Shown here: piece after piece, positions 3,580 to 45,379 of the stretch
Position numbering within the stretch: the first letter of the stretch is position 1
Layout: every line of letters starts with the position of its first letter
Source of the DNA: a virus
Length of the DNA: 45,379 nt
IMG/VR virus record: IMGVR_UViG_3300045988_046206
Coordinates: 1 to 45,379 of that record
Direction: 5' to 3' (one strand)
Position numbers and translations under genes: made by a program
Notes under the pieces: generated by a model
The model's database searches: none
Told to the model about the DNA's origin: nothing
What the model saw: only the letters and a program-made list of their open reading frames with translations

Positions 3580-4042
3580 TTGCATTTCCTCCCTTGACTG
3601 CTGATTCCTGCACGGTATTAGCTCTAACAGGTTCAGAAAAAGAATTTAATCGGTTTATGATAGCTTCATATTTGCCTTTCAAATCATCGTATTCCTGTCG
3701 TGTGACATATTTACTGTCCATGTTCTGAACAGGCTGTTTAGGTGGCATCTGAGTACCTATTTCGTGATACTCAAACGTCCGTAATGGTTGTGGCATACCG
3801 GAAACGTCTGTGGATTTTATGTAGAACTTTTCGCTTTCACTGTCCATCAGTAAAACACTTGTTCCGGGTGCTACCAGATAGGATTTTGCGCCGACTTCGC
3901 CAGACACCCACAGGATACCATTGTTATTCTGCTGGGGTTGCTGTACTGGTTGAGCTGGCATCTGGACAGGCTGTTGCTGAAATTGATTCATCTGTCCCGG
4001 AACGCCAAAACTATATTGATAAGGATTGTTATATAATGCCAT
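3572..4042 (-). CDS. Hypothetical protein with Q/P-rich N-terminus and a compact beta-rich core (156 aa)
   Basis: Track ORF 3572..4051 begins at a GTG. The ATG at 4042 lies 8 nt after AGGAGG. No motif recognised. Confidence 0.65.
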   Translation of the reverse strand: MALYNNPYQYSFGVPGQMNQFQQQPVQMPAQPVQQPQQNNNGILWVSGEVGAKSYLVAPGTSVLLMDSESEKFYIKSTDVSGMPQPLRTFEYHEIGTQMPPKQPVQNMDSKYVTRQEYDDLKGKYEAIINRLNSFSEPVRANTVQESAVKGGNANE

Positions 4043-4056
4043 CTCGTACACCTCCT

Positions 4057-4104
4057 ATGACTTATTCTATGACTTATTCTATGACTTATTCTATGACTTT
4101 CTAT
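4057..4104. repeat. Tandem 12-bp repeat ATGACTTATTCT x3 plus one degenerate copy, abutting the RBS of 3572..4042
   Basis: Read directly: copies at 4057-4068, 4069-4080 and 4081-4092 are identical. Copy 4093-4104 is degenerate (ATGACTTTCTAT). Confidence 0.9.
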
Positions 4105-4119
4105 AGCTATATTTTTGCA

Positions 4120-4155
4120 TAAAAAAAGAACCGGAAACAGGTCGTTTCTGGCTCT
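4120..4155 (-). terminator. Rho-independent terminator (minus strand)
   Basis: Minus strand reads AGAGCCAGAAAC-GACCT-GTTTCCGGTTCT followed by TTTTTTTAT. Lies directly downstream of 4175..4375. Confidence 0.8.
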
Positions 4156-4174
4156 AATTAGTGCCTAAAAAGTA

Positions 4175-4375
4175 TCAGCACACTTTAATTATTTTATTGT
4201 TTACCCGTCGGCTCAATCGTTTCGCCGTAGATATGCTCACATTCATTTTCTCAGCACAGCATTCGAGAGTGTATTCTTTGCATCTCAGCCGAAACAGTTT
4301 TTCTTCGTCCGGCGTAAAATTACACTCTGTCAAGAACCTGTCTATATCTTTCTTCGTGAACACATATAACTTCAT
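4175..4375 (-). CDS. Small sigma-70 region-4-like HTH protein (66 aa)
   Basis: MKLYVFTKKDIDRFLTECNFTPDEEKLFRLRCKEYTLECCAEKMNVSISTAKRLSRRVNNKIIKVC. The pattern L..RE..vF.Lr...g.s..EiAe.l..S..TVk..l.ra..Ki is typical of region 4. ATG at 4375 lies 7 nt after AAGGGG. Confidence 0.55.
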   Translation of the reverse strand: MKLYVFTKKDIDRFLTECNFTPDEEKLFRLRCKEYTLECCAEKMNVSISTAKRLSRRVNNKIIKVC

Positions 4376-4395
4376 AAGCATACCCCTTACCAATG

Positions 4396-4701
4396 CTACC
4401 GTTGATTCTGCGCAAGATACTCCGTGAGCTTCTGTTTTGTTTTTTTTAACTCCTCGACATTATTCCCACTGATCTGACTGTCCAACATGGTCGACAACAC
4501 TTCCAGAATCAATGAATCACGCTCTGCAATCCTCTGGAGACTCTCGTAATCTCGTTTGTCATGTTCTTCCAGTGTCTCTACTCGCTTATTGAGGCGAAAT
4601 GCCGGTGTAATCCATTTAAAGATTACGGCTGCCGCTCCTCCGACAATAGACACCCCTCCGCAGATTGAAAGGAATATTTGTACAAATTCTGATATGCTCA
4701 T
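4396..4701 (-). CDS. Hypothetical membrane-anchored coiled-coil protein (101 aa)
   Basis: N-terminal TM segment FVQIFLSICGGVSIVGGAAAVIF followed by a charged helical region. RBS is AAGGAG. Confidence 0.7.
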   Translation of the reverse strand: MSISEFVQIFLSICGGVSIVGGAAAVIFKWITPAFRLNKRVETLEEHDKRDYESLQRIAERDSLILEVLSTMLDSQISGNNVEELKKTKQKLTEYLAQNQR

Positions 4702-4705
4702 TTAG

Positions 4706-5089
4706 CTACTCCTTTTCCCAGTAATATACCGGGATCTCATTACCGCTATCCCATGTATCGAAATATTTGCCCTCTTGTACTGCCACAACATGACCATCTA
4801 TGCAAAGAATGTATGTGCCTGTCGGATGGTCTGTGCAAAAGTCATTGACTGTATAGATATATCGTTCTGATTGTTCAATCAGTTTACGTCTGTACCCATG
4901 CTTATAAAGGTATGCTCCCCAGACATAATTTGCGCTTGGCATATCTGATAGAGAACACGCTTGTACCATTAGCCCGGCGAATACTGTTTCCCAGTCGAAG
5001 CCAGTTGCTTTGCATATTGCCCGGACAACGCAATCTCCTGTTCTCTTATCCTTAACAGGATTCGGATTGAAATATTCCCATCTATCCAT
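4706..5089 (-). CDS. Hypothetical protein, possible papain-like cysteine peptidase fold
   Basis: 127 aa. Candidate catalytic Cys lies in the motif NPNP...GDCVVRAI, with a later GH (CIDGHVVAV). Translationally coupled (TGATG) to the minor capsid gene. The function call is tentative. Confidence 0.35.
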   Translation of the reverse strand: MDRWEYFNPNPVKDKRTGDCVVRAICKATGFDWETVFAGLMVQACSLSDMPSANYVWGAYLYKHGYRRKLIEQSERYIYTVNDFCTDHPTGTYILCIDGHVVAVQEGKYFDTWDSGNEIPVYYWEKE

Positions 5090-6318
5090 CAGTCAATCCC
5101 CTTTGCTGTTTTATAACGTTTTGCCGCTCCTCTGGCTTTAGCAGCGTTCTGACGGTTCCACTTAGCAATCATGAGCCGGTCTTGCAGTTCTCTCAAGTCG
5201 TTCTGCTTGCAGTAATCTTTATATGCAGTATTTTGTTTCTGCAAAAGATAAGACTTCCGGTCAAGGTCTTGTTGGAGTGCGAATCTTGCCTGTTCGTCCT
5301 TGCAGTTGTCAACCGCCGCTTGCAACCCAAGGACTTCACGCTTCGTTTTGCGGATTCTTCGTTCATAAGTACGTTGTCGTTGTTCCTTTTCGTACTGTTT
5401 GCCTTTGTCGGTTTTATCCTGTGCTGATAATTCCGCATAAGGATTAAATTCTCCATCACTGGCTCCAAAGCTATGCCGACAGTTGACCCCTGACAATCCG
5501 CTTGCTGTTCCATACCCAGTCAATGAGAACGGCGGAAATTTCTTACTCTTGCCAGAACGAGAGTATATCTTGCCTTGCCAAAACGAGTGATTTCCCGGAT
5601 TCTCGCCGCCGTCACCCGTCCTCGCTCCTATGTGCGCACTGACCAGAACTAAATCCCAGTCCATTTCTTCCATGCGTTTTAGGGATATATCTCCCGTAGC
5701 CTGCGCCACGCCAGTTCTAACAGAACGTGCAACTGCGGTTTCGATGGTGTCTTTTCTGCCAGATGGATATGTGACAGTGACGCCATCTGATACAACGTTA
5801 TTGACTGCCTCTTTGATGGCTTGCGTATACCCAACTGCTCCAGTCATTACATGATTATAGGCAAGGTCGCATTGTTCGATATAGAGTCTCTGGGCGGCAC
5901 TTGCGGTTGTTCTCGTGAAGTTCTTCCACTCGCCCATGGTTGCAAGCATATTCCGCTCCATGAGCCTTATCATAGATGGTGACTGTTCGAGCGGTACAGG
6001 GCTTAATCCCGCCGCCTTATATACCTTATCATCATAGTTCATTGCAGTGATTCCGGCATCTTCAAACGCTTCAAGAAGCTCCTGCTGTTCACGTTTGGTG
6101 TATTTGGATAGTTCCGCTAGAATGTCTTCTAGTAATTCACCAGATTCCTGTAGTGTTCTGATTCTCCATACATCAGCGTTGGTCAGAATATAATCCTCAC
6201 CTCTGCCGATTCTTGCCATCATCCGAGACACGATCTCAGAGATGATATACTGATGCAGTTCTTCTGCAATTTGTTCACTGCCCTCTGTTATCCGGCGCAA
6301 ATATTCAGGACTAAGCAT
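5089..6318 (-). CDS. Minor capsid / head morphogenesis protein (phage minor capsid protein 2, SPP1 gp7-like)
   Basis: 409 aa. The N-terminus MLSPEYLRRITEGSEQIAEELHQYIISEIVSRMMARIGRGEDYILTNADVWRI matches the minor-capsid-2 pattern. Basic C-terminal tail. RBS is AGAGGTGA. Confidence 0.75.
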   Translation of the reverse strand: MLSPEYLRRITEGSEQIAEELHQYIISEIVSRMMARIGRGEDYILTNADVWRIRTLQESGELLEDILAELSKYTKREQQELLEAFEDAGITAMNYDDKVYKAAGLSPVPLEQSPSMIRLMERNMLATMGEWKNFTRTTASAAQRLYIEQCDLAYNHVMTGAVGYTQAIKEAVNNVVSDGVTVTYPSGRKDTIETAVARSVRTGVAQATGDISLKRMEEMDWDLVLVSAHIGARTGDGGENPGNHSFWQGKIYSRSGKSKKFPPFSLTGYGTASGLSGVNCRHSFGASDGEFNPYAELSAQDKTDKGKQYEKEQRQRTYERRIRKTKREVLGLQAAVDNCKDEQARFALQQDLDRKSYLLQKQNTAYKDYCKQNDLRELQDRLMIAKWNRQNAAKARGAAKRYKTAKGID

Positions 6319-6704: not shown

Positions 6705-8381
6705 TTAATTACACATTAACTCGGGTACATCAGCTAACGCTCTCATATATAAAGTTTTCGCCCCTAATTCTGTTGGATGCACCTTATCATCATTCAGCAT
6801 TCCATCATACCAACTTGCTCCGCTACTTTCGGCATTAACGCCCTTTGCGAAATCAATATATCTATAACCACTATTTCTAGCAATTTCATTTTTATATATG
6901 TGGTTTCGAATTGGCGTATTTGGAAATGTTGCAAGAATAAGTTCTATATTATTTTCTTCACATAATGTTTTAACTTTTTCGTAGTAGTCTGCCCATTGTT
7001 CGTTTACCGCATCTCCATCATTATCATTCATTCCCATGCACCAAATTATAGTTTTCGGATTACTATATTTTAGATTTTCGATAAGTGAAGTGTATGCTCC
7101 TGAAGATTTTCTGCCAGGAAAACCATCTAATAGGTTATTAGTGTACCCTGCTTTTAGCAGGTGTTTAGTCCATCTTGAGCTATCAATACAACTAAAATAA
7201 CTGTCTCCGTATAACTGAATATCTTTGAAAAATCCATCGCAACTCCATGATAGTATGCAATCATTAAACGCCCCATTTACTGATTCTACAAAAATATTTC
7301 CTTCATTTCCAAACCAATTCCAATCAGTATATTCGTATGATACACCTTGACTTTGAATAGTTATTTTTGGATTTCCATTTGCGTCAACGTCAATCTTAAT
7401 TTGTAAATCTTTTGTTATTGTTAATCCATGTTGTTTCGTTCTTAATAGCTTTGTCCCATAGTAGGTTCTTAATTCAGTATCAGTAACAACGATACTGTTT
7501 AAATTTTCTCCGTGTCCTATTTTAATTTCTCCCATTGCATCGAGATTACAAGCGAAAGATAAATGTTTCAATGTTAATATGTTAGGCACAAAAGTAGATA
7601 AGGTATTTCCAGTTGTCAAATTTCCACTAATTGAAATATTTTTAGATTTATTCGCATAGATTTTATCTTGTTTTTTAGAAATTGCATCGACTTTTTTATT
7701 TAGATTATTAAACCCTTTAGGCGTAATTGTGCTAACAGTTACAGTTCTCTTTACATAAAACTGTATATTATTTACAAACCGCATAAGGCAAGTTATGTAT
7801 AGATTATCTACGCCTGACGGAACGGTATAAAGTTCAGTATCACTTGAAATAGATGCAGAAGATACTCGATCTGTGCCATTGTAAGCATCAATGAATCTCA
7901 TTACTTGATGCGCGGAATCAATTATTGCAGTGATAATGTCACCTTCTTGCAAATTATCTAAATGGACATAGAAATAATCTGTGTTTGTATTTGGTTTGCC
8001 ATTCCAATAATAATAATTGATAGTTTTAATAACATTTTGCTCAATGTTATGTGTTTCTGTTTTCGTTTCTGCATCTGTGATAGCACTTAAATCTTCCTTT
8101 AGCGAACCAGTTTCCTCTTTCAGTGAAGCAACGTCTGTCTTGTTCTGCTCGATCTGCTGTGCCTGTTCTGTGGTGGCACCGGGCTTGACCGGGTTCTTTT
8201 CAAGGTACTCATTTACTGCATTCTTGATTTCTTCCGGTGAAATCTCACCGCCTATTCCTTTTAAACATAATTCGTATAAATACTTCTCTTTTCTCGTGAT
8301 TGGTTTCGGGAGTTCGCCCTTGTAATCACCTGTCAAGTACGCGAGATACTTTTCTTCCCTTGTTACTGGTTTATCTGCCAT
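6705..8381 (-). CDS. Fibre-like structural protein with C-terminal SGNH/GDSL hydrolase (esterase) domain
   Basis: 558 aa. N-terminal paired motif TREEKYLAYLTG / TRKEKYLYELC is common in Firmicutes phage fibres. C-terminal blocks are YGDSYFS, MGMNDN and DKVHPT (SGNH blocks I, III and V). Confidence 0.7.
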   Translation of the reverse strand: MADKPVTREEKYLAYLTGDYKGELPKPITRKEKYLYELCLKGIGGEISPEEIKNAVNEYLEKNPVKPGATTEQAQQIEQNKTDVASLKEETGSLKEDLSAITDAETKTETHNIEQNVIKTINYYYWNGKPNTNTDYFYVHLDNLQEGDIITAIIDSAHQVMRFIDAYNGTDRVSSASISSDTELYTVPSGVDNLYITCLMRFVNNIQFYVKRTVTVSTITPKGFNNLNKKVDAISKKQDKIYANKSKNISISGNLTTGNTLSTFVPNILTLKHLSFACNLDAMGEIKIGHGENLNSIVVTDTELRTYYGTKLLRTKQHGLTITKDLQIKIDVDANGNPKITIQSQGVSYEYTDWNWFGNEGNIFVESVNGAFNDCILSWSCDGFFKDIQLYGDSYFSCIDSSRWTKHLLKAGYTNNLLDGFPGRKSSGAYTSLIENLKYSNPKTIIWCMGMNDNDGDAVNEQWADYYEKVKTLCEENNIELILATFPNTPIRNHIYKNEIARNSGYRYIDFAKGVNAESSGASWYDGMLNDDKVHPTELGAKTLYMRALADVPELMCN

Positions 8382-8385
8382 CTTT

Positions 8386-9831
8386 TTACTCCTCTCCGAA
8401 TAGTTTTGGTTCGTCTGGTTGAGCTTCTTTGACCATTGCTTTCGCTTCTTCCTCAGTCATTCCTTCAAATTTCACGAAATACAACCATGCCGGAACCTTG
8501 CCAGTGGTCACATACTGCCACCATCTTGCACGGTCGTTTTCTCGCACATACAGGATGTCTCCAAAATCATAATTGACTTCATAAGCTCCGACAGGTGCAA
8601 GCCCATACAGGTCAGCGTAAACGTTCAGTGCGTAGATAACATCATCAAGGCAACTTTCCAGTTTGTCTCGAACATCTTTAATGAACTGCACCGTCCTCTG
8701 CTGTTCTGCTTCTACTCCTGTAGCCGTCTGAATGCCGCTAGATTCGTTAAAAACAAAGTATCCGTTAGAGAATCCAATCTTATATCCTAACTGGCTTAAA
8801 AGGGCATTTATGCCGCTTATACGAGTATCTGTGTTGAGTTGTGGATTGATTTCTTGGTAAAACTCTTTCTCATCCTGTCCGAATACATTTTTCACATAAT
8901 CCGGCAAGCTCATTTCTTTGCATCTGTGCTCCATGGCCTGCGGTGTCATGGCGGATACTGGTGATCCGCTCGGCATCAGCAGTCGGTCATCTGCCAGAAC
9001 GGTTTTCTTAGAATCAAGGATTTCTTTTGCATTACGGCTGTATGCAATGTCCAGATCTTTCAACTCTTCGATAGCTTCTGCAAATATCGGAAGCCCAAGC
9101 GGTGTGCTAATGTCTACATTATTCGCTTGTGGTGTCCGCAACACTCCGTACAGAGGTCCATCCAGCTTCTCACCGTTTGCCTTGAGAATTGGTGGCGTGT
9201 CTTCCATGAGGTCAGCCCATTTGGTCTGTTTAAGGTCAATCTTATCTCCGATGCTCTGAGGAGATTTTGATACGTAGGCTCTGTTGGAAACGTAGTATGG
9301 ATAAGTTATCACTCCATCTATTGTAGTCTCAACAAACCTATGATATTCAAGCCTTGTATAGTATTTCCTTCCGACAGTATAAGAATCCTTAAATATAATC
9401 CCTTTGATCTCCTGGTTGTCATAGTCTACAATCATCACGTCTGCCGGAGTAAATACGTCAAGGCTCTCCCCATTCGGCTTGATGAAAACCGTTCCGTAAG
9501 CACAACTATATTCTACCCAGTGGCGTATCTGGAAATATACCTTGTCAATCTGTTCCTGCAACCATGTAGCCCTTGCGGAGCCATCTATCTGAATGCCAAT
9601 CGCCAATGTTGTGAGCCGGGCTGTTTCTGAGCAGACAGATTTGGCAAAATTAATTGTCTTGATATTATTCTTATCATCTAACCATTCCGGCGCGCCTCTG
9701 TAGATGTTCGCACACCGATTAATCAGTGATTCCATCTCCGGAAATTCTGCTGCCTGGATATTAAAATCCTCTTCGGCTTGTTTTTTAAAAATCATGTTAA
9801 ACCACCTTTTTAGTGTTGTTATAAGTCCCAT
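8386..9831 (-). CDS. Portal protein (SPP1 gp6-like)
   Basis: 481 aa, immediately downstream of the terminase (TAATG overlap). Size and sequence style match SPP1-family portals. An alternative start at 9795 has a good AAGGTGG RBS. Confidence 0.8.
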   Translation of the reverse strand: MGLITTLKRWFNMIFKKQAEEDFNIQAAEFPEMESLINRCANIYRGAPEWLDDKNNIKTINFAKSVCSETARLTTLAIGIQIDGSARATWLQEQIDKVYFQIRHWVEYSCAYGTVFIKPNGESLDVFTPADVMIVDYDNQEIKGIIFKDSYTVGRKYYTRLEYHRFVETTIDGVITYPYYVSNRAYVSKSPQSIGDKIDLKQTKWADLMEDTPPILKANGEKLDGPLYGVLRTPQANNVDISTPLGLPIFAEAIEELKDLDIAYSRNAKEILDSKKTVLADDRLLMPSGSPVSAMTPQAMEHRCKEMSLPDYVKNVFGQDEKEFYQEINPQLNTDTRISGINALLSQLGYKIGFSNGYFVFNESSGIQTATGVEAEQQRTVQFIKDVRDKLESCLDDVIYALNVYADLYGLAPVGAYEVNYDFGDILYVRENDRARWWQYVTTGKVPAWLYFVKFEGMTEEEAKAMVKEAQPDEPKLFGEE

Positions 9832-11468
9832 TATGCACTGTTACCTCGTCTTCTCCACAATGATTCTGAGCCATACCGGACGGAATCTATCATATGATTA
9901 TCCTTGTCTGGATATCCACTACAGATATTTCCGTCTTTGTCGCGTTCGTATTCGTATTTCTTAAACTCTTTGCAAGCATTTGGCGTTCTTTTTGGATCAA
10001 ACACAAGTTTTCTTCGTTGCAGCCACTTCATGGAATACTCAATACTTCCCGGTCCTTTGATTGCTCCCCTTGCTGGGAGTCCTGAATCTCTGTAATCATT
10101 GATTGATTTAGGCTCGGCAGAATCGCAAGTAATTTCGTAATCATCATACTGCCTTCGCTTGATTTCATTCGCAGTCCATTCATTTGATTTTTTGTTTTCG
10201 TAAATCTCGTCAATGAAATAGATTGTTTCTCTAGCTGAATCATAATAGATTCTGGAGAAAGCATATTTGTCCGGATACCAGCCCCAGTCAACCCCCTGAT
10301 AAATTCTATCAAAATGGCTGATCTCTTCGTCTGTGATAGTTCTTTCTTCGATATATTCAAAGATATTTCCACCATTTCCGTTGGCGTGTCCAAGGTACTC
10401 ATTTTCGTAAGCATCTGGATTTACTTCTTTTAGATGTTCGGCATCTGTGAGAAATACGTCGCCAAGCCACTCCTGTTCAATCCCTAAATCAAGGTATGTG
10501 CTATGCACAACCATTACATTTTTATCTTTTTCTTCTGCTTCTGCCGTGTACTCATTTGCCCAGTTGTTTTTACTCCTAGGCGGGTTGAACGACTTGAATT
10601 TATACGCTTCGTTTCCCCCTCGAATAGCAGACTGCTGGATATTTCGGATTTCTTCTGGATTAGAAAACTGGTCTAACTCCTCGAACCAGACAATACCTAT
10701 ATATCCAAACTCCGGCTTGATAGACTTAATCTTTAATGGATCGTCAGCACCACGAAAGTAAATCTTTTGTCCGGTGGGCTTATACGTAATCTCCATCGGA
10801 GATACTTTGCATACAAATTCCTCATTTAGATCTAATTTATCAATAGCCCATTTCATCTGAGCATAAACAGAATCTTTGATAGTGTTTCCAACTTTTCGCA
10901 GAATCAGAGCGTGCATGTTCGGATTATTCTTCAGCAGTTCCGGTATGATTAGCGATATGGTCGAGGACTTCATGGAACCACGTCCGCCAGGGAGAATGTA
11001 TTCGCTATGTTTCTTTGCCCGGATATCCCTAATCATTTTATGAAATACATCCGGTACAATATTCAGGTCAATATGGTATTCACCTTGTAATCTGGCTTTT
11101 TCTTCTGCTTTCCGCTGCTCTTCTCTGGCTTCTTTTATAGTAAGCGTTTTTTCCAGATCATTCATGGATTTCAGCTGATCGGAGAAGTCCGGAGTGAACC
11201 CGAATGAATCAGTCAGCTCACCTCTTGCGATCATAGAACGGCGTTGCTGAATTTCTGCCAGTGACATGATGTCAGTGCCTTTTTGCTTTTCGATGAGGGA
11301 CTGTTTTTCGGCTATATATGCAGAAATACAACCTTTTTCCAACAGTTTTTTTGTCGCGTTTCTAACGATTCCATTAGAGTATCCAGCTTTCCTTGCGGCG
11401 TCAGATGCATTCCCGCCATTCTTTATATATTCAAGTGCAAACGCTTCCTGTTTAGGCGTTAAGTTCAT
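9831..11468 (-). CDS. terL: Terminase: TerS-like N-terminal HTH domain fused to the large subunit (PBSX/XtmB-type ATPase-nuclease)
   Basis: 545 aa. Residues 1-~60 (MNLTPKQEAFALEYIKNGGNASDAARKAGYS) match the Terminase_2 small-subunit motif. These are followed by Walker A-like GGRGSMKS, Walker B VWFEELD, and nuclease motifs GVDWGW, DSAEP and HMIDSVRY. Confidence 0.85.
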   Translation of the reverse strand: MNLTPKQEAFALEYIKNGGNASDAARKAGYSNGIVRNATKKLLEKGCISAYIAEKQSLIEKQKGTDIMSLAEIQQRRSMIARGELTDSFGFTPDFSDQLKSMNDLEKTLTIKEAREEQRKAEEKARLQGEYHIDLNIVPDVFHKMIRDIRAKKHSEYILPGGRGSMKSSTISLIIPELLKNNPNMHALILRKVGNTIKDSVYAQMKWAIDKLDLNEEFVCKVSPMEITYKPTGQKIYFRGADDPLKIKSIKPEFGYIGIVWFEELDQFSNPEEIRNIQQSAIRGGNEAYKFKSFNPPRSKNNWANEYTAEAEEKDKNVMVVHSTYLDLGIEQEWLGDVFLTDAEHLKEVNPDAYENEYLGHANGNGGNIFEYIEERTITDEEISHFDRIYQGVDWGWYPDKYAFSRIYYDSARETIYFIDEIYENKKSNEWTANEIKRRQYDDYEITCDSAEPKSINDYRDSGLPARGAIKGPGSIEYSMKWLQRRKLVFDPKRTPNACKEFKKYEYERDKDGNICSGYPDKDNHMIDSVRYGSESLWRRRGNSA

Positions 11469-11929: not shown

Positions 11930-12277
11930 ATGAAAAAATACAACTTATCAAACATTATGAAAAGAGCATGGGAACTGGTTAAAAAAGCCGGAATGACAAT
12001 TTCCTCCGGACTTAAAAAAGCATGGGAGGAGGCAAAAACAATAGAAAAGAAGATCTTTGAAGGACGCATGGAAATGACAGTTCCAGAGGCAGACAATAAT
12101 ACTGTAAGTGTTAGATTGTGGAAGAAAGGATCCTACAAAAGAATCTACTTCAACGACTACAAAAACAGAGCTGTTGGCTATATCGACTGTGTATCCCGCA
12201 CAGCACATTACATGGACGGATACGCTAGAATGTATGCACCGGCCATTGACAGATTTATGGAAGAATATGAGTTTTAA
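11930..12277 (+). CDS. Hypothetical protein (115 aa)
   Basis: RBS is GGAGGAAAG. The N-terminus has a repeated K(R/K)AWE motif (IMKRAWELVKKAG, LKKAWEEAK). Confidence 0.7.
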   Translation: MKKYNLSNIMKRAWELVKKAGMTISSGLKKAWEEAKTIEKKIFEGRMEMTVPEADNNTVSVRLWKKGSYKRIYFNDYKNRAVGYIDCVSRTAHYMDGYARMYAPAIDRFMEEYEF

Positions 12278-12295
12278 TTTAAGGAGGAAATAAAG

Positions 12296-12865
12296 ATGGA
12301 AAAATGGACAATTCGTATTGACGATTCTAAGATGTCAATGTTAAGAAACTATGGGAGTTGCTACAAGCACGGTGGAGGAGCTGGAGGATATTTTGATTTC
12401 TTCGGGGATTCCTTGCAAGAGGCTGCCGATAGTCTTATACATGTATTAGTTGATGCATTCTCTGATGACAGCGTTACCATATTGGAGTATCCGGAACATG
12501 CAATTATCGAAGAGAGAATACATGAATATGCGAACTGTGCAGAGAAACATATTACTCTCATCTTTCCGTGCAAGTGCCGGAAATATAAAACTGGTATTGG
12601 TGATATCAATTTCAACAACGATATCCGTATTATTCTTCAGGAGCAAAAGATGCAGGTTGCCGAAATGCGTGCATTATTAGATGAATCACGCGTGGCGTTT
12701 TCTAAGCAGTACAATATCCCCGTAAGAACGCTTGAAAACTGGGAGTCCGGAAAGAGTCAATGTCCTGAATATGTAAGGCAACTTCTTGAGAGAGCTGTTA
12801 GGGAGGACGCAAAAGTTAAAAATGATGAATCAGACACCAACGCAGAAGATACTGGAAGCTTATGA
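12296..12865 (+). CDS. Hypothetical protein with C-terminal XRE/antitoxin-type HTH
   Basis: 189 aa. RBS is AAGGAGGA. The C-terminus FSKQYNIPVRTLENWESGKSQCPEYVRQLLERAV matches the TL.NWE.G.r.P pattern of MqsA/HigA-like HTH domains. Confidence 0.65.
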   Translation: MEKWTIRIDDSKMSMLRNYGSCYKHGGGAGGYFDFFGDSLQEAADSLIHVLVDAFSDDSVTILEYPEHAIIEERIHEYANCAEKHITLIFPCKCRKYKTGIGDINFNNDIRIILQEQKMQVAEMRALLDESRVAFSKQYNIPVRTLENWESGKSQCPEYVRQLLERAVREDAKVKNDESDTNAEDTGSL

Positions 12866-17381: not shown

Positions 17382-18872
17382 TTAATTTAGATTTACGTTC
17401 ATTTTCCTTGCCATGGCTTCTATAACTGTCACTGTTACTCCGTTCCCTGCCTGCTTGTATAACTGGCTGTCAGAATTTACGAACTGTGCTTTTTCAAAAT
17501 AATCATCGGACCACCCTTGCAGTCTAAAGCATTCTTTTGGGGTCAGCTTCCGGATTGCTATGTAACACTGATATTTTTCATACCAGACTGCATATACCGT
17601 TAATTCTTCCGATACCTGCACGAATATTCCTTGATTGCAGCTTGTATCTAGCGTATTGGCGACTTCTTGTCCGGCTCTTCCTCTTCTTGTCTTGCTGTTT
17701 GGCATTGAGAAGTTCACGCTGTCAATTCCCACTCTGCATTCTGCGTAACCTTGTTTCGTTGCTTCTTTGACTTCAATCGCGATTCCGTGCCGGTCCTGTC
17801 CTGTCAGCGTGAACATTGGCTCGCCATCTTCTTTGAATCTTCTACCATTCTGACGTTTTTCAGCACGATCTGGCGTGAGAACTGGAATTGCAATCTTATT
17901 CCCCTCACCTTTGTTTGTCGTTAAAGTTGGATTTAATCCGTTGGAATCATACACGTTCCCATTCATTCCTTTCCCTGACGGATTCACATTACATACAACT
18001 CCAACACTTCTAGGTTCTTTGTAATCTCTACTTGTTAGTGTTGGACAAATATTTTCATATATGCGTGCTTTTCCATCTTGACCAATATAACTTGTATCAA
18101 ATAATATGGATACTTTGGGTTCTGTGTTTCCTCCTGGCTTCGTACTGATTGTTGGTTCTAATCCATCGCTGCTATAAACTCTATCTCGCTGTGAATTTCT
18201 GCCATTAAGGCAACTGAAAAGATTTAACGAAACACTATTTTTTCCGTCTGTTCCTTCGATAGGAAATATTTTTGAGGTACTTCTCCCTCTAAGATGTCCG
18301 ATAATAAAACATCTTTCCCGGTTTTGCGGCACTCCGAAATCTTTGGAGTTGAGCACCTGCCATTCTGCATCGTACCCTTGTTGTTCCATTTCAATGAGCA
18401 GTCTGGCGAAATCCCATCCTCCATTAACACTAAGCAGATTTTTAACGTTCTCAATGAAAAGGTAAGTGGGTTTATCTTCTTCTTTGAGTTGTCCGACAAG
18501 GTACATAACTCTGAAAAACAGGCTTGAACGGTTTCCTTGAAATCCGGCTTGCTTTCCTGCAACGGATATGTCCTGGCAAGGGAATCCGAAGCACCAGCAG
18601 TCTGCTTTGGGAATGTCTCCGGCATACACTCTTCGAATGTCATTTGCATACCATTCTCCATTTCTGTATTCCTCCTTTAATATTTCTTTCTGTCTTTTCT
18701 TGATAGGAATATCTTCCAATGCCTTTCGCTGCTCTTCTGTCAGCAAGTGCATTGAGATGTAACTCGCAGTGGCAAATTTATCGAATTCGCAAAAACCAAC
18801 GCATTCATGCCCTGCTAATTCCATTCCCCTGCGAAATCCTCCGATTCCTGCGAAAAAATCTATAAATTTCAT
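17382..18872 (-). CDS. DNA (cytosine-5)-methyltransferase with an unusually long variable region (candidate multispecific enzyme)
   Basis: Motifs present: I FAGIGG, IV GFPCQDIS, VI ENVKNL, VIII QNRERCFIIG, IX RKLTPKECFRLQGW, X GNGVTV. The ~245-aa variable region carries four PT(L/I)(T/S)-type repeats. Confidence 0.9.
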   Translation of the reverse strand: MKFIDFFAGIGGFRRGMELAGHECVGFCEFDKFATASYISMHLLTEEQRKALEDIPIKKRQKEILKEEYRNGEWYANDIRRVYAGDIPKADCWCFGFPCQDISVAGKQAGFQGNRSSLFFRVMYLVGQLKEEDKPTYLFIENVKNLLSVNGGWDFARLLIEMEQQGYDAEWQVLNSKDFGVPQNRERCFIIGHLRGRSTSKIFPIEGTDGKNSVSLNLFSCLNGRNSQRDRVYSSDGLEPTISTKPGGNTEPKVSILFDTSYIGQDGKARIYENICPTLTSRDYKEPRSVGVVCNVNPSGKGMNGNVYDSNGLNPTLTTNKGEGNKIAIPVLTPDRAEKRQNGRRFKEDGEPMFTLTGQDRHGIAIEVKEATKQGYAECRVGIDSVNFSMPNSKTRRGRAGQEVANTLDTSCNQGIFVQVSEELTVYAVWYEKYQCYIAIRKLTPKECFRLQGWSDDYFEKAQFVNSDSQLYKQAGNGVTVTVIEAMARKMNVNLN

Positions 18873-24869: not shown

Positions 24870-25016
24870 TCACAGATTCCCTACTAAGATCATGCTCATT
24901 GCGGCTGCCGATAAGACTCTATCAGCAATTCCCGACCATTCCCAACATGGCAGGAACGTCGCCAGAATTCCTATGGTGATCGCCATAATCACTTCTCTTA
25001 CGCGGACTTTGTTCAT
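24870..25016 (-). CDS. Small membrane protein (48 aa), below the ORF-track cutoff
   Basis: Hand translation, verified codon by codon: MNKVRVREVIMAITIGILATFLPCWEWSGIADRVLSAAAMSMILVGNL. RBS is GGAGGGAG. Confidence 0.5.
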   Translation of the reverse strand: MNKVRVREVIMAITIGILATFLPCWEWSGIADRVLSAAAMSMILVGNL

Positions 25017-26942: not shown

Positions 26943-27167
26943 TTAAGAACTTTGAACTTTTTCTTTAAAAAAATAGTCCTGTATATCATCAGCAGAAAGT
27001 TCTAACAGATTGACTGCCTTGCAAATATCTGACTGCTTCCAAAACAGCTTTCCGTTGAGCTTCAACGACAATGTACGCTCCGACCATTCCATAGCATTCG
27101 CAAAGGAACTCTGACTATCATATTTCTCAACGATTCTTCCTTTGAGCTTACTATAATCAAATGCCAT
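26943..27167 (-). CDS. Cro-like HTH regulator, DUF739 family
   Basis: MAFDYSKLKGRIVEKYDSQSSFANAMEWSERTLSLKLNGKLFWKQSDI...DYFF matches the DUF739 signature. Divergent from the repressor. Confidence 0.8.
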   Translation of the reverse strand: MAFDYSKLKGRIVEKYDSQSSFANAMEWSERTLSLKLNGKLFWKQSDICKAVNLLELSADDIQDYFFKEKVQSS

Positions 27168-27334: not shown

Positions 27335-27697
27335 ATGGAAAAAGTTAGTTCGTCAGAAAGATTTAAGACTTTGATGGACGAACGTAATCTGAGACAGGTT
27401 GATATTCTCAATCTTGTTCTTCCATATTGTAAGAAATACAATGTGAAAATGAATAAGTCAGATATTAGCCAGTACGTTTCTGGAAAGACAGAGCCTAGTC
27501 AAGAAAAACTGGTTGTCTTAGGAATGGCACTAAATGTTTCAGAGTCGTGGTTAATGGGATTTAACGTAGGACGTGCCAGAAAAGACACACCTAATCAGGC
27601 GAAAGAAGATTTTAATCTGATTTCAAAATTCTCATTATTAAGCGAACGCGATCAGAAAATTGTTTTAAGTCTAATTGATTCCATGCTTTCTAATTAA
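27335..27697 (+). CDS. XRE-family phage repressor (CI-like, no S24 peptidase domain)
   Basis: 120 aa. The HTH LRQVDILNLV...MNKSDISQYVSGKTEPSQEKLVVLGMALNVSESWLMG is typical of HTH_3. RBS is AAAGGAGA. Confidence 0.8.
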   Translation: MEKVSSSERFKTLMDERNLRQVDILNLVLPYCKKYNVKMNKSDISQYVSGKTEPSQEKLVVLGMALNVSESWLMGFNVGRARKDTPNQAKEDFNLISKFSLLSERDQKIVLSLIDSMLSN

Positions 27698-27898: not shown

Positions 27899-28225
27899 TC
27901 ATTTTTTTGCTATTATATCACTAATGTTTGCCCTTGGAAACTGCCAGATATACACCGATATGTTTATGATTGCATAGAAATTATTCGTAACATCAAAGAT
28001 ATAGTCTTTTCTGTTTAGCGGCAGGGCGAATAAAAATGGCGGCATGCTCTGCTTTATTTCATGGGTGCTATTCTTATGTAGGGTAGAAGACCTGTACGCA
28101 TTTTGGACAGAATACACTTCTGACTCTTCGCGGATATAATCGTCTATGCACATTGGTAAACAAACAATGTAATTAAGCAAAAGTACAGCTCCTATTATAA
28201 TTAGTATATTTTTGATTATTTTCAT
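27899..28225 (-). CDS. Hypothetical secreted/membrane protein (108 aa), AT-rich moron
   Basis: Track ORF trimmed to the MKIIKNILIIIGAVLLLNYIV... signal/TM start after AGGTGAT. Visibly AT-richer than the flanks. Confidence 0.6.
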   Translation of the reverse strand: MKIIKNILIIIGAVLLLNYIVCLPMCIDDYIREESEVYSVQNAYRSSTLHKNSTHEIKQSMPPFLFALPLNRKDYIFDVTNNFYAIINISVYIWQFPRANISDIIAKK

Positions 28226-28250
28226 TTCACAAATCACCTAAAAACGTATA

Positions 28251-28279
28251 TTTACAACTATATTGTATGATGCTATAAT
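28251..28279 (+). promoter_or_regulatory. Near-consensus sigma70 promoter TTTACA-17 nt-TATAAT for the LytTR operon
   Basis: Read directly. The leader contains ACAGTTTAAG at 28326-28335. Confidence 0.7.
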
Positions 28280-28347
28280 CAACTATAACATATAGAATTC
28301 TTATTTGACGCAAATGGCGAAAATGACAGTTTAAAGGACTGATTTGC

Positions 28348-29052
28348 ATGAAAATTGCGATTTGTGACGATAATCCTTTGCAGATTGATTTTTTTAAGGC
28401 TCATGTTGATGAGTTTTTGAAAAAGCGTGGAGACAAGAGCTACACGCTAAACACTTATAGTAGTGGGAAGCCGCTGATTGATGATATAGCAGACGGTCAA
28501 TGGTACGATATAGTCGTGCTGGATGTGGTCCTAAATAATGAGAATGGCATAAATGTCGCAAAGCAGCTCAGGAAAAATGGATATAATGGCAACATTGCCT
28601 TCTGGACAGCATATAAAAACTATGTATTTGACGCATTAGACGTCTTACCAGTGCATTACATCATCAAAGGTTCTGAACATGGACGCATGTTTTCTGTCGT
28701 AGCGCACACGTTGGAAGATATCCGAGAGAAAGCCTTAACTATCAAAAACCGAGACCACTTCCACCGGGTAGAATTCCGGCATATCGAATACATAGAAAGC
28801 CGAAATAAATCAATTCTCGTCCACTGTACTTGCGGCGTTATGCATGTAGCACGTGAAAAGCTGTCAGATATAGAGCCGCATCTTGATGGAAGATTTCTCC
28901 GTTGCCATCAAAGTTATATCGTCAACATGGACGAAATTAAAGATGCATCAGATCATTTTGAGATGATATCGGGGGATATTGTTCCAATCAGGCAGAGGGA
29001 GGCTGCCAAAATAAGGAATCTATATAAGAATTATATCGAGAATTTTGAGTAA
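28348..29052 (+). CDS. Orphan response regulator: receiver domain + LytTR DNA-binding domain
   Basis: 234 aa. The start MKIAICDDN..., the candidate phospho-acceptor in DIVVLDVVL, and the C-terminal RVEFRHIEYIESRNKSILVHC...FLRCHQSYIVNMDEI are typical of AgrA/LytR-class regulators. Confidence 0.8.
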   Translation: MKIAICDDNPLQIDFFKAHVDEFLKKRGDKSYTLNTYSSGKPLIDDIADGQWYDIVVLDVVLNNENGINVAKQLRKNGYNGNIAFWTAYKNYVFDALDVLPVHYIIKGSEHGRMFSVVAHTLEDIREKALTIKNRDHFHRVEFRHIEYIESRNKSILVHCTCGVMHVAREKLSDIEPHLDGRFLRCHQSYIVNMDEIKDASDHFEMISGDIVPIRQREAAKIRNLYKNYIENFE

Positions 29053-29072
29053 TCGTGTCAAAAGGGGGAAAT

Positions 29073-29951
29073 ATGAAAAAAATACGAAATGTGTTGATGA
29101 TCGTTTGGACCGCATTAATTGTATTAATGATTGTGGCCTTGATGAGTTCAAACGATCTTTCATCAGACAATATTATGGTCGTTGTTGTACTTGAGGTATT
29201 TGGAATTGCTGTTTTGTATCTTATTTTTGCACTTTTGCTGTCTATTAAAAATAAGGTTCAAAAACCTGCAATATCAAATAATTCCGTAGCAACCCAGCCA
29301 GCGGTTGTAGAAAAACCTGTTCGAGTATTGAATCTGAGAGTTATATCCGGTAAGGAGGATTTTGAGCTTGGTTCCAAACACGCAAGATTTGATTTGAAGC
29401 AATGGAAAGATGGGTCTGTTACAGTGTCAGATGCTCCAACCAAATATGAACTTTTCGACTATGAATGGAACGGGCCGGAATACAGAACAGTAGAAAAGAC
29501 AACTACAACATCTCACACTAAAGGGAAAAGTAAAGAAAAAACGAAACGAAGAGGGCATTTAGCAGGAGCCGTTGTTGGAACCGCTATTGCTCCGGGAGTT
29601 GGAACTATAGTCGGTGCAGCTGTTGGAACTGGAAAGAAAACCAAAGGAAAGAATAATTCCACTACTACTGGAACTGCTACCACAACAAGTGATAACATTG
29701 AAGTGGATTCTTATGCATCTATGAAAATGCGGAATATCGAAACCAATCAAATAAATACTATTGGATTCCGCTGTAGTTCAAATATAGATATGCAGTTAAA
29801 GAGCTTCAATATTTCCAAAAGCTCTGATGCTGTTGAAAATGTTCGAAATCAGAAAACATCCGTTGAACTACTGAAGGATTACAAAGAGCTTTTAGATAGC
29901 GGTATTATTACTCAAGAAGAATTTGACCAGAAAAAATCAGAACTTTTATAA
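29073..29951 (+). CDS. Membrane protein: 2 TM helices, soluble region, glycine-zipper segment, C-terminal SHOCT-like domain
   Basis: Track ORF trimmed to the ATG after AAGGGGGA. TM segments are VLMIVWTALIVLMIVALM and VVVVLEVFGIAVLYLIFALLL. GAVVGTAIAPGVGTIVGAAVGTG forms the glycine zipper. The tail is ELLKDYKELLDSGIITQEEFDQKKSELL. Confidence 0.7.
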   Translation: MKKIRNVLMIVWTALIVLMIVALMSSNDLSSDNIMVVVVLEVFGIAVLYLIFALLLSIKNKVQKPAISNNSVATQPAVVEKPVRVLNLRVISGKEDFELGSKHARFDLKQWKDGSVTVSDAPTKYELFDYEWNGPEYRTVEKTTTTSHTKGKSKEKTKRRGHLAGAVVGTAIAPGVGTIVGAAVGTGKKTKGKNNSTTTGTATTTSDNIEVDSYASMKMRNIETNQINTIGFRCSSNIDMQLKSFNISKSSDAVENVRNQKTSVELLKDYKELLDSGIITQEEFDQKKSELL

Positions 29952-29956
29952 AAAAG

Positions 29957-29990
29957 AACCGGCTCTCACTACCAATGAGAACCGGTTTTT
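29957..29990 (+). terminator. Rho-independent terminator
   Basis: AACCGGCTCTCA-loop-TGAGAACCGGTT (12 pairs, 1 mismatch) followed by TTTTT. Confidence 0.8.
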
Positions 29991-30115
29991 AAAATACTTG
30001 CATCACAACTGAATAGCGAAGATGATGCGTACAACACACAAACCATATTGTATCATCTTCGGCTATTTTGGGCAATACAGAAAATTTGTTCACATTTCAA
30101 ACAAGGAGGAATATC

Positions 30116-31294
30116 ATGCCGAAGAAAAGAAAAACTTATCCAAAATTACCAAACGGATTCGGGAGTATCCGTTATCTTGGCAAGAACCGACGTAATTGCT
30201 ATGCCGTGCATCCACCGGCAACGATTGACGCATCAGGAAAAGCGATCCGCCCACCCGCGATCTGCTACGTTGACGACTGGCTAAAGGGTTTTGCTGTCTT
30301 AACTGCCTACAAAGCCGGAACATATAAGCCAGGAATGGAGAATGACCTACCTGTATCTCCTACCGCCGATACAGATACCCTTGTGAGCCGCATATTGGCT
30401 GATTACGGGACGATAAAAGGAGTAGAGGGTAAACATCCAGAGATTAAGAAATTAACGTTTGCAGAGGTATACGAACGGTTTATGGCATGGAAGTTCGCCG
30501 AGGGAACGACTTACTCAAAAGCAACGAAGTCAAACTATTCGGCATCCTATTCGTACTGCAAGCCATTGCACGACAGACCTTTTGAGGACTTAAAAGCTAC
30601 TGACCTGCAAGAATTTGTCGATAGTCAAAAAGGTTTTAAAAGAGGGAGTTTGAGAGTAATACTGGTGCTGTTTAACCAGATGTACAAATATGCGATGTAC
30701 GCTGAAATCGTATCAGAGAACAAATCCAGATACGTCAAGATAAACAAAGAGGACGACACGGAACATGGTACTGCATTTTCTGAACAGGAACTGGAAATCC
30801 TGTGGCAAAATTCAGCAGATTTTGACGTACAGTTAATTCTGATCATGTGCTATTCCGGCTGGAGAATCGGAGAAATTGAGAATCTGGAGGTTAATCTGGA
30901 TGAACGATATTTTAAAGGCGGCTCAAAAACAAAAGCTGGCAAAGGCAGGATCGTTCCTATACATCCGTGTATCTACGATTTTGTCAGAACAAGAATCGAA
31001 ACTGACGGAACTCTACTGAACATTAACAAGGTCACCTATCGGATGTACCGATTCTATCCCGTATTGGAAAAATTAGGAATAGTCGGAGATCCGAAGCACA
31101 CACCACACGATTGTCGGCACACATTTTCTGCTCTGTGTGAAAAATATTCCGTCAGAGAAAACGACAGGAAAAGAATGCTAGGACATGCATTTGGGAATGA
31201 TATCACGAACGCTGTATATGGACATCGAACAGTAGAAGAACTTCGAACAGAGATTGAGAAAATAGAAGTTCCGTTTGTGACTAACTGTGACTAA
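30116..31294 (+). CDS. int: Tyrosine integrase
   Basis: Track ORF trimmed to the ATG after AAGGAGGA. The C-terminal catalytic region is ...WRIGEI...HTPHDCRHTFSALC...LGHAFGNDITNAVYGH (R, H-x-x-R, H, Y). Confidence 0.9.
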   Translation: MPKKRKTYPKLPNGFGSIRYLGKNRRNCYAVHPPATIDASGKAIRPPAICYVDDWLKGFAVLTAYKAGTYKPGMENDLPVSPTADTDTLVSRILADYGTIKGVEGKHPEIKKLTFAEVYERFMAWKFAEGTTYSKATKSNYSASYSYCKPLHDRPFEDLKATDLQEFVDSQKGFKRGSLRVILVLFNQMYKYAMYAEIVSENKSRYVKINKEDDTEHGTAFSEQELEILWQNSADFDVQLILIMCYSGWRIGEIENLEVNLDERYFKGGSKTKAGKGRIVPIHPCIYDFVRTRIETDGTLLNINKVTYRMYRFYPVLEKLGIVGDPKHTPHDCRHTFSALCEKYSVRENDRKRMLGHAFGNDITNAVYGHRTVEELRTEIEKIEVPFVTNCD

Positions 31295-44348: not shown

Positions 44349-45379
44349 TTATGATTTTGCTGTTACGCTTGCACTTCCGGCATTCAGTGCCTTGTATGTT
44401 CCGTCACACTCAACCACTGTGATCTTCTGTCCGGTTGTTGCCTTAACATCAGCTTTTCCGTCCCATGTAGTCCAGTTTCTGAGATTCTGTCCATAAGTCA
44501 CAGCTGTTTCAGACGCACCAACTTTGTATTTGTATACATTGTTAACGTTTTCTTTAGCCGGATTTACAGTGATTTTTGTGTCGCCGTTTGCTGTTCCAGC
44601 CACGGAATTTACTGTCAGAGTACCAAGCGCTGGTGTCTCATCAATGGTGATTACTGCGATTGCGTCAATGTATTCCGCAAAAAGAGTAAGTCCCATAACT
44701 GCGAATGCTTCGGATACTGCTGTGTGGTAGTTGCCCTGTGTGTGGAATCCGATCAGGTTTGTTTCACCGGATACGGTATACACCAGACCTGCTCTTGCAA
44801 AGTCAGATTCGTTCGGGTCAACATAGTAAAGTACGATGTTCTCAACAGGTGTAGCGATAACCTGTCCTCTCGGGATTTCACTGTCAGACAGTAAGAAGAT
44901 GGTATTGAAGCCCATGAAATCCTTCATATACTGGAAGCCGAACTGGTTCTGAATAGTGATCTCAGCTGCTCCAAGGTATTCATATACGTCCAGAATGTTC
45001 ACAAATCCAACAACGCCAGTCACATTTCTGTGCATCTGTTTGAATTTGTTTTCTACTCGACCTTTAGCCATTGCCAGAGCCATCTGGAATGTAGTTTCTG
45101 TGGAAGTAAGTGTACCAGTTTTCAGATAATCATAGAATCTTCCGGTAACATCAGTCTGAAGTTGGAAAAGGAATTCATCGTCAGTCATCTGAACAGCGTT
45201 CTCATAACCGTGATCCTTGATTGCTTCGATAGATACAGCCTTTGCGTACTTTTCGATAGTCATTTCCGCATAGTTCTTTTCTTTTACAACGAATTTGCTG
45301 TAAGGGATTTCCTCACCCTCTGCCACTTTTCCGCTCTGTAAAGTACCCTCTGCGTATTTTGACTTGAGTACAGCGCCCG
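44349..45379 (-). CDS. Major capsid protein, main part (N-terminus lies at 194..56 across the circular junction); C-terminal Ig-like extension
   Basis: Frame is open through the window end and joins 1..194. Follows the scaffold gene. The last ~85 aa (LTVNSVAGTANGDTKITVNPAKE...KITVVECDGTYKALNAGSASVTAKS) look like a bacterial Ig-like decoration domain. Confidence 0.8.
   Translation of the reverse strand, partial: GAVLKSKYAEGTLQSGKVAEGEEIPYSKFVVKEKNYAEMTIEKYAKAVSIEAIKDHGYENAVQMTDDEFLFQLQTDVTGRFYDYLKTGTLTSTETTFQMALAMAKGRVENKFKQMHRNVTGVVGFVNILDVYEYLGAAEITIQNQFGFQYMKDFMGFNTIFLLSDSEIPRGQVIATPVENIVLYYVDPNESDFARAGLVYTVSGETNLIGFHTQGNYHTAVSEAFAVMGLTLFAEYIDAIAVITIDETPALGTLTVNSVAGTANGDTKITVNPAKENVNNVYKYKVGASETAVTYGQNLRNWTTWDGKADVKATTGQKITVVECDGTYKALNAGSASVTAKS
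45325..45379. repeat. Second copy of the 55-bp terminal repeat
   Basis: Identical to 1..55. Confidence 0.95.

Follow-up and report, generated by a model that had tools for sequence, protein, structure and literature searches.

An orphan REC-LytTR response regulator in a temperate phage lysogeny module, joined in one operon to a membrane-protein gene that is probably a separate accessory module

Introduction

LytTR response regulators of the AgrA, LytR and ComE type combine a receiver (REC) domain with a LytTR DNA-binding domain and carry a conserved acceptor Asp, a Thr and a Lys. Here we describe a two-gene operon in a 45,379-nucleotide phage genome (IMG/VR record IMGVR_UViG_3300045988_046206; this whole stretch is called the window below), in which a gene of the same architecture (gene 1) is followed by a gene for a membrane protein (gene 2). 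Gene 1 shares the conserved residues of these regulators, but it differs from them in having no cognate kinase, peptide or AgrB, in lying in a phage lysogeny module and in the residue after the conserved Lys, which is Gly and not the usual Pro. Our analysis favours, with a probability of about 0.6, an orphan regulator that needs an AgrC-type kinase of the host and has become joined, in one operon, to a passenger gene for a membrane protein, the two being separately mobile modules.

There are precedents for a phage that carries part of a host signalling system while the host supplies the rest, namely VqmA-Phage of VP882 and the agrB/D/C genes of phiCDHM1 (PMC7790227, PMC3901668, PMC4124054). 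The phage phiCDHM1 encodes the signal and the kinase and no regulator (PMC3901668), and the window phage, with a regulator only, is its mirror image. VqmA-Phage acts as a one-component factor that binds a ligand, and its output has been demonstrated (PMC7790227), whereas the window regulator is a predicted two-component protein. In the literature consulted, homologues of LytTR proteins in phages receive only passing mention (PMC4124054, PMC11945551). Outside phages, CdtR of Clostridioides difficile, encoded in CdtLoc, is an orphan REC-LytTR regulator on an accessory element, and some of its targets have no recognisable canonical LytTR sites (PMC4944984). CdtR is chromosomal and controls toxin genes, whereas gene 1 belongs to a phage lysogeny module, and the likeness of the two is one of type. 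The order of the two genes in the window also recalls the HdrRM/BrsRM systems, in which a LytTR gene is followed by a membrane-protein gene in one operon; gene 2 begins 20 nt downstream of gene 1, and its product has two predicted transmembrane (TM) helices.

Results

Gene 1 encodes a LytTR-family response regulator by architecture, and not an orthologue of AgrA, LytR or BtsR. Its product scores 42 bits against Pfam Response_reg (cut-off 30.2; residues 3-116) and 51 bits against Pfam LytTR (cut-off 22.6; residues 138-204), which bears out the domain assignment of an earlier sequence-only reading of this DNA, and it also matches the LytTR-domain chain 3d6w. Its scores against the NCBIfam equivalog models compare poorly with their cut-offs (LytR, 53.6 versus 375; BtsR, 39.6 versus 246; AgrA, 35.9 versus 400). 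The acidic pair and the candidate acceptor Asp picked out by the same reading correspond to D7, D8 and D59. In a set of 17 homologues that reaches down to 28% identity, D7 and K107 never vary and D8, D59 and T87 are conserved to at least 90%, and in an alignment to the solved regulator RR468 D59 falls at the acceptor position and the pocket residues correspond. The phospho-acceptor pocket is thus intact in its residues.

The regulator family as a whole is phage-specific, orphan, widespread and uncharacterised. The phrog_8810 profile covers gene 1 over its full length (E 7.6e-35), relatives are encoded on at least 551 IMG/VR contigs, and every context examined is a lysogeny module in which the regulator comes after a CI-like repressor. 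Individual members depart from the standard layout. P0159, which is 49% identical to gene 1, has a Ser at the D8 position and a Glu at the D59 acceptor position; Glu at this position is the classic phosphomimetic change. In P0168 and P0161, both from public metagenomes, the N-terminus of a CI-like repressor (residues 1-78 of the window repressor in P0168) is fused in frame to the C-terminal part of the receiver and the LytTR domain, and the acceptor Asp is missing. The two fusions have arisen either by natural deletion within the module or as chimeras during assembly.

A kinase partner for gene 1 was sought in the window and in related loci. Pfam searches, covering every other open reading frame (ORF) from 250 aa upwards and the majority of those of 110-250 aa, revealed no histidine kinase and no AgrB-like protein in the window, and a hidden Markov model (HMM) of AgrC-type kinases found no kinase among the window ORFs of at least 100 aa, in agreement with the absence of both that had been noted earlier. 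The model was built from three AgrC-type kinases and recovered 3/3 positive controls at 343-373 bits; over 169 regulator-bearing loci (1.84 Mb) it detected no AgrC-type kinase. Among chromosomal relatives, one that is 37% identical to gene 1 adjoins HATPase_c_5 (AgrC-type) kinases, and another, 35% identical, adjoins an Hpt protein. Because gene 1 is kinase-less, its pocket is intact and AgrC-type kinases accompany its distant relatives on chromosomes, the borrowing of a host kinase is the most economical reading of these sequences.

A complete version of such a system is found in Ruminococcus phage NatCom_29429 (PV036441; locus L344), another gut Clostridia phage with a REC-LytTR regulator (27% identity). 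Positions 3998-6078 of this phage encode the regulator and a HATPase_c_5 kinase as a pair, both annotated as hypothetical proteins. The kinase lies directly downstream of the regulator and perfect repeats with a 21-bp period lie upstream, whereas the window has neither. Because of this regulator-kinase pair, phage-borne LytTR signalling exists in complete and orphan forms.

The window operon is compact and has its own signals (Table 1). Its promoter is the top match within the 4.5 kb scanned, is kept in the lineage whose regulator is 71% identical and occurs as TTTACA-17-TACAAT in the 64% lineage. The 20-nt spacer between the genes holds a GGGGGA Shine-Dalgarno sequence, and a plus-strand scan of 28280-29146 detected no promoter of gene 2's own. 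The closing hairpin was placed by the scan at 29957-29987 and assigned to the minus strand; because T runs flank it on both sides, the terminator is probably bidirectional. Given the short spacer, the lack of a separate promoter and a terminator placed after gene 2, gene 2 is expected to be co-transcribed with gene 1. The near-consensus promoter and the strong terminator of the sequence-only reading were both recovered, as were the ORFs of its two-gene unit between repressor and integrase, although it had overlooked the minus-strand gene at 27899-28225. An RNA element in the gene 1 leader was considered and dismissed, as the Rfam matches are sub-threshold and chance-like and the fold z-score is -0.97.

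Table 1. Features of the lysogeny module and the regulator operon in the window
Feature	Position	Strand	Basis or remark
Cro-like DUF739 gene	26943-27164	minus	lysogeny module
CI-like repressor, start of the lysogeny module	27335-27697	+	PHROG repressor/transcriptional regulator families, phrog_2967 E 1.3e-13
UPminus, 108-aa single-pass membrane protein, divergent from gene 1	27899-28225	minus	ORF and AGGTGA Shine-Dalgarno
Operon promoter, sigma-70-type, TTTACA-17-TATAAT with TG extension	28251-28279	+	11/12 in promoter scan
Leader motif AAATGGCGAAAAT, candidate regulator half-site	28312-28324	+	conserved at position -33 relative to the start codon in the chimeric lineages and in types A and B
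Gene 1, orphan REC + LytTR response regulator, 234 aa	28348-29052	+	Pfam, phrog_8810, conserved pocket residues
Gene 2 Shine-Dalgarno, within the 20-nt spacer	29064-29069	+	sequence read
Gene 2, 292 aa: 2-TM anchor, PH-like beta domain with Lys-rich/glycine-zipper insertion, SHOCT tail	29073-29951	+	
Hairpin terminator closing the operon	29957-29990	probably both	14-bp stem, 6 GC pairs, T runs on both sides
Tyrosine integrase, end of the lysogeny module	30116-31294	+	phrog_1 integrase E 2.6e-37

What follows the regulator changes from lineage to lineage. Gene 2 lies downstream at 53/53 loci of the A type (at least 95% identical to gene 1), and a Zn-ribbon/TM/tRNA_anti-like OB-fold protein takes this place at 27/27 loci of the B type (71%). 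No downstream cargo is present in the 64% lineage, where a convergent amidase comes next, nor in the chimera P0131 (67%), the 53% lineage and the 51% lineage (44 contigs), where a convergent lysin comes next. The 53% lineage has a Big_2 protein upstream, and the 51% lineage, which shares repressor and Cro with the window, has a secreted protein upstream of the regulator. The tandem pair of regulator and gene 2 is thus found only in one shallow clade (regulator at least 95% and gene 2 82-100% identical; 53 loci). Homologues of gene 2 at 75%, 71% and 60% identity lie, without a regulator, in modules where a repressor stands on one side and an integrase or serine recombinase on the other, those at 75% and 71% directly after a homologue of UPminus, and a sensitive regulator HMM found no REC-LytTR within 5-8 kb of the gene 2 core in about 47 loci. 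The sole pairing outside the window clade occurs in L269-271, with a REC-LytTR protein 25% identical to gene 1; in L269 (2055-3808) this gene is divergent from an adjoining zinc-ribbon member of the gene 2 family, and a repressor and a serine recombinase flank the two.

These arrangements are best explained if the pairing of gene 1 and gene 2 is not a conserved system and two independent accessory modules have been joined in one lineage. The regulator is independent of gene 2, and gene 2 is independent of the regulator. Recombinant regulators show how cargo and regulator stay together. Homologous recombination cannot split a cargo from the regulator 3' end, because the cargos are non-homologous and the regulator-cargo spacer is only 3-20 nt. 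In the chimera P0122, REC of type A is joined to LytTR of type B and the B cargo follows; in P0131, REC of type A is joined to a third-type LytTR and no cargo follows. From these breakpoints, cargo follows its physical neighbour, the regulator 3' half, as adjacency alone predicts. The sequence-only reading had interpreted the operon as a coupled regulator-effector device that borrows a host kinase. Its borrowed host kinase remains the most economical view, and its placement in the accessory slot of a temperate phage holds, but the co-conserved device is largely contradicted, as the two genes are apart in most related phages.

A dedicated two-protein device, in which the regulator senses the signal of a host kinase and either controls the membrane protein specifically or acts together with it for signal-gated superinfection exclusion or abortive infection, is therefore unlikely. 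Such a device would account for the tight operon with its 20-nt spacer, for the 53/53 linkage despite mosaic flanks, for the divergent pairing in L269-271, where the two families have come together independently, and for the presence of Abi_alpha, PBECR3 and SIR2_2 among the neighbours of the gene 2 family. It is hard to reconcile with a regulator that has other cargo or none in five other lineages, with about 47 loci of the gene 2 family that have no REC-LytTR at all, and with a chimeric regulator whose cargo goes with its 3' half, just as simple adjacency would have it. The device also has no match in PADLOC, and in six loci that have no regulator, regulator-type repeats are absent 5' of the genes of the gene 2 family.

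A further alternative is a pair of the HdrRM/BrsRM (LRS) type, in which the downstream membrane protein (gene 2, or the Zn-ribbon protein in the B cassette) would sequester or inhibit the regulator until a membrane signal arrives. A LytTR regulator followed by a membrane protein in a two-gene operon is the arrangement of these systems (PMC6193735), and the place after the regulator is taken by either of two membrane proteins that are not homologous to each other. Yet gene 1 departs from them in two of the three testable LRS features, as it has a full receiver domain, which LRS regulators do not have, and has no repeats 4-11 bp 5' of the -35 element (PMC6193735); no 9-bp direct repeats upstream of that element were found in 28150-28360. 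Its partner is not conserved, many relatives of gene 2 have neither a TM anchor nor a LytTR partner, and the regulator stands alone in several lineages. We consider a pair of this type the least probable explanation of the operon.

The product of gene 2 is a membrane protein by prediction, and its layout largely agrees with the one first read from the sequence. It scores 36.6 bits against Pfam SHOCT (cut-off 27; residues 267-292), and the two N-terminal helices and the glycine-rich segment are supported by both an AlphaFold2 (AF2) model and the hydropathy profile. The glycine-zipper model in our own Pfam scan of gene 2 was not significant (E 0.16), but the motif is supported by precomputed matches to PF27000 (PH_gly_zipper), partly marked 'weak', for P0001, a protein identical to gene 2, and for many homologues. 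In the AF2 model (mean pLDDT 69, with confident domains and unconfident linkers), helices 2-25 and 31-62 are followed by a disordered linker. Strands 84-149 and 198-234 and a helix at 236-243 form a single beta domain, which is interrupted by the Lys-rich/glycine-zipper segment 147-200 (low confidence), and two SHOCT helices occupy 263-291. The zipper has a Kyte-Doolittle value of 1.6-1.8 and Lys/Arg flanks on both sides, consistent with a re-entrant or inner-leaflet segment. Everything past the second TM helix is probably cytoplasmic, because this topology agrees with the positive-inside rule and because relatives have an N-terminal zinc ribbon or no anchor. One proposal for SHOCT is that it tethers domains to the inner membrane leaflet (PMC11237479); the paper that first described the domain saw no oligomerisation (PMC3581485).

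Gene 2 belongs by sequence to SHOCT/PH_gly_zipper proteins and to phrog_4431 and phrog_888, PHROGs without an assigned function; these families have no experimentally known function. Its core (residues 84-250) defines a small family of 171 clusters at 50% identity among 1.84 billion representatives. N-termini vary within the family between two TM helices, a zinc ribbon and nothing, and the 2-TM anchor is specific to the sub-branch of gene 2. No structure in PDB or BFVD matched the model in Foldseek at E <=0.001 (the best match was the ICAP1 PTB domain, E 0.5), and a profile of gene 2 had no significant match among PDB sequences. PADLOC 2.0, read up to E 0.1, gave no match for gene 1, gene 2 or UPminus. 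Membership of gene 2 in an already characterised superinfection-exclusion (Sie) or abortive-infection (Abi) family, which would have spoken against the novelty claimed by the sequence-only reading, was not seen in PHROGs, PADLOC or the structure libraries, and PHROGs, Foldseek and the PDB profile showed no likeness of sequence or fold to such families. Searches of genome contigs with the gene 2 alignment were dominated by uninformative SHOCT-only matches, and P0116-type relatives in IMG/VR were likewise SHOCT-only matches.

The position of gene 2 offers a further comparison. The lactococcal Sie2009 and Ltp of S. thermophilus are prophage exclusion genes in the slot between repressor and integrase. 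Gene 2 shares with them the genomic position and a small membrane-associated prophage product; it differs in that no sequence or structural similarity to them was detected and in that its bulk is predicted to face the cytoplasm. Members of the gene 2 family usually adjoin a prophage integrase. Since this is their usual place and they sometimes lie next to defence genes, our best guess for gene 2 is a role of the exclusion or abortive-infection type. In L266 (5001-8062) a gene of the family shares its prophage lysogeny module with PBECR3 and SIR2_2 genes, and in L006 (5743-6546) another shares its module with an Abi_alpha gene. The slot in these two loci appears to gather defence-type cargo.

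Direct repeats of 10 bp at a 21-bp period are the hallmark of LytTR sites, and related regulator leaders contain them. L169 carries TGGCGAAATT / TGGCGAATTT (matched or beaten by 9/1000 shuffles), L174 carries two copies of GATAAATGAA (0/1000), and the kinase-coupled L344 carries two perfect copies of TTGGCACGAA (2/1000), all at a 21-bp period. The repeats of L169 and L174 lie just 5' of the regulator ribosome-binding site, and those of L344 lie 94 nt 5' of the regulator start codon. The window keeps a single TGGCGAA unit (28315-28321) at the place homologous to the L169 repeat, and this unit is conserved among A-type, B-type and chimeric leaders. A regulator bound at the L169 or L174 repeats, or at the window unit, would more likely repress its own promoter than activate it, because in all three leaders the motif is placed past the -10 element of the sigma-70 promoter. 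The AgrA-like half-site of the sequence-only reading, the one part of its observations that failed outright, is a different motif. Positions 28326-28336 read ACAGTTTAAAG and not ACAGTTTAAG, four matches compare with 3.4 expected when one mismatch is allowed, and the corresponding leaders in related phages do not preserve the motif; we rejected it as mis-transcribed, at chance level and unconserved.

Neither in the leader nor beyond it does the phage genome show a convincing binding site for the regulator. Pairs of TGGCGAA elsewhere in the 45-kb genome do not exceed chance, no repeat sites beyond chance occur in the repressor/Cro intergenic region, and no convincing LytTR-like repeats lie 5' of the gene 2 family genes of the six regulator-less loci. 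One pair in the early region, TGGCGA-N15-TGGCGA at 24958-24988 (minus strand), was tried as an operator candidate and discarded, as it encodes a TM stretch and is present at only 3/53 A-type and 1/27 B-type loci. The targets of the regulator may lie in the host chromosome.

This lack of sites is what a lysogenic-conversion regulator or decoy would lead one to expect, that is, a protein that acts mainly on the host by binding host promoters or by drawing phosphate away from an AgrC-type kinase. The quorum-sensing outputs of the host would thereby be rewired to the benefit of the prophage, and gene 2 would have no part in it. The strong, constitutive-looking promoter would suit this role, and there are precedents in the orphan LytTR regulator CdtR, whose target genes are unlinked (PMC4944984), and in VqmA-Phage of VP882, which likewise regulates host genes (PMC7790227). 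The significant 21-bp-period repeats in the regulator leaders of related lineages imply at least autoregulation on phage DNA, however, and we regard this explanation as improbable. An input to the lysis-lysogeny decision, in which the phosphorylated regulator would trigger or block induction in response to the cell density of the host, much as VqmA-Phage does but with two components, is very improbable. The regulator does sit beside the repressor in the lysogeny module of every lineage seen, and eavesdropping on quorum sensing by a phage has been described (PMC7790227). Against such an input, the gene is accessory, with close relatives of the same module layout lacking gene 1, the repeats between repressor and Cro do not go beyond chance, and the sole early-region TGGCGA pair lies in coding sequence and is uncorrelated with the presence of the regulator.

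The window is a complete, circularly assembled 45-kb genome, with positions 1-55 identical to 45325-45379. Its genes are those of a temperate phage, with terminase, capsid, tail and lysin genes, an ERF/SSB/primase replication block and the lysogeny module, and, judging by the source names attached to near-identical proteins, its host is probably Blautia obeum. The repressor protein is 99-100% identical in phages with either regulator cassette, integrase alleles vary independently of the cassette, and a convergent GH25/CHAP/SH3 lysin comes after the integrase. Homologues of UPminus lie 5' of the regulator in most lineages and 5' of gene 2 in regulator-less phages. UPminus has two alleles (95% and 37%) that shuffle independently of the regulator, is present too in regulator-less relatives and had no match in Pfam, PHROG or PADLOC; its C-terminal motif Y-x-W-Q-F/L-P-R-x-N-I is common to homologues of other phages. 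UPminus is itself a candidate exclusion gene.

Elsewhere in the genome, a 545-aa ORF (9831-11468, minus strand) unites small-terminase (Terminase_2) and large-terminase (Terminase_3 plus RNaseH-like) domains. A 558-aa protein of the head-morphogenesis block (6705-8381, minus strand) has a C-terminal GDSL lipase/acylhydrolase-like domain slightly under the Pfam cut-off, and the early region encodes a C-5 cytosine DNA methyltransferase (17382-18872, minus strand; E 1e-61). Two plus-strand ORFs of 115 and 189 aa without a Pfam match (11930-12865) form an island between the terminase and replication genes, where the genome is otherwise minus-strand, and this island may be another accessory slot.

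Discussion

We propose that the operon consists of two modules with separate histories. In the first, the regulator would be expressed in the lysogen from its own strong sigma-70 promoter, D59 would be phosphorylated by an AgrC-type (HPK10) kinase of the host or by a small phosphodonor, and the phosphorylated regulator would then bind direct repeats, for which TGGCGAA is the candidate unit. In the second, gene 2 would be a passenger co-transcribed from the regulator promoter, and its product would act at the inner face of the membrane, as suggested by the PH-like domain, the glycine-zipper insertion and the SHOCT tail. The coupling seen here would merely place the expression of gene 2 under the controls of the regulator promoter.

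Several points weigh against this proposal. The donor kinase in the host is hypothetical, and the Glu at the acceptor position of P0159 suggests a kinase-independent variant, so that kinase independence is possible within the family. Binding and regulation are putative because the window leader does not have a LytTR-type double repeat; it has no second unit, and its best 10-mer match (6/10) is equalled by 964/1000 shuffles. L269-271 represents a second, independent juxtaposition of the two families. Finally, regulator allele and cargo are linked at 80/80 IMG/VR loci, while repressor, UPminus and integrase alleles assort freely across the cassettes. This linkage amid freely assorting flanks shows that gene 1 and its cargo move as one cassette, and a functional tie would likewise yield it. 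We did not accept perfect linkage as proof of function, given that the cargos have no mutual homology and that the breakpoints lie inside the regulator gene.

The regulator and the membrane protein are best studied as separate modules, and of the two it is the regulator family that has the wider generality and the greater interest. A broader and speculative possibility, which we think doubtful at present, is that the phage orphan REC-LytTR family serves as a plug-in receiver for host AgrC-type peptide quorum-sensing kinases in gut Clostridia, as the two-component counterpart of VqmA-Phage of VP882, and that cargo expression or prophage behaviour would then depend on host density. If a host kinase truly phosphorylates the regulator, many temperate phages of abundant gut commensals such as Blautia and its relatives would be wired into host peptide signalling, and this would bear on prophage induction, on phage-phage exclusion and on the ways in which prophages alter the behaviour of commensal bacteria.

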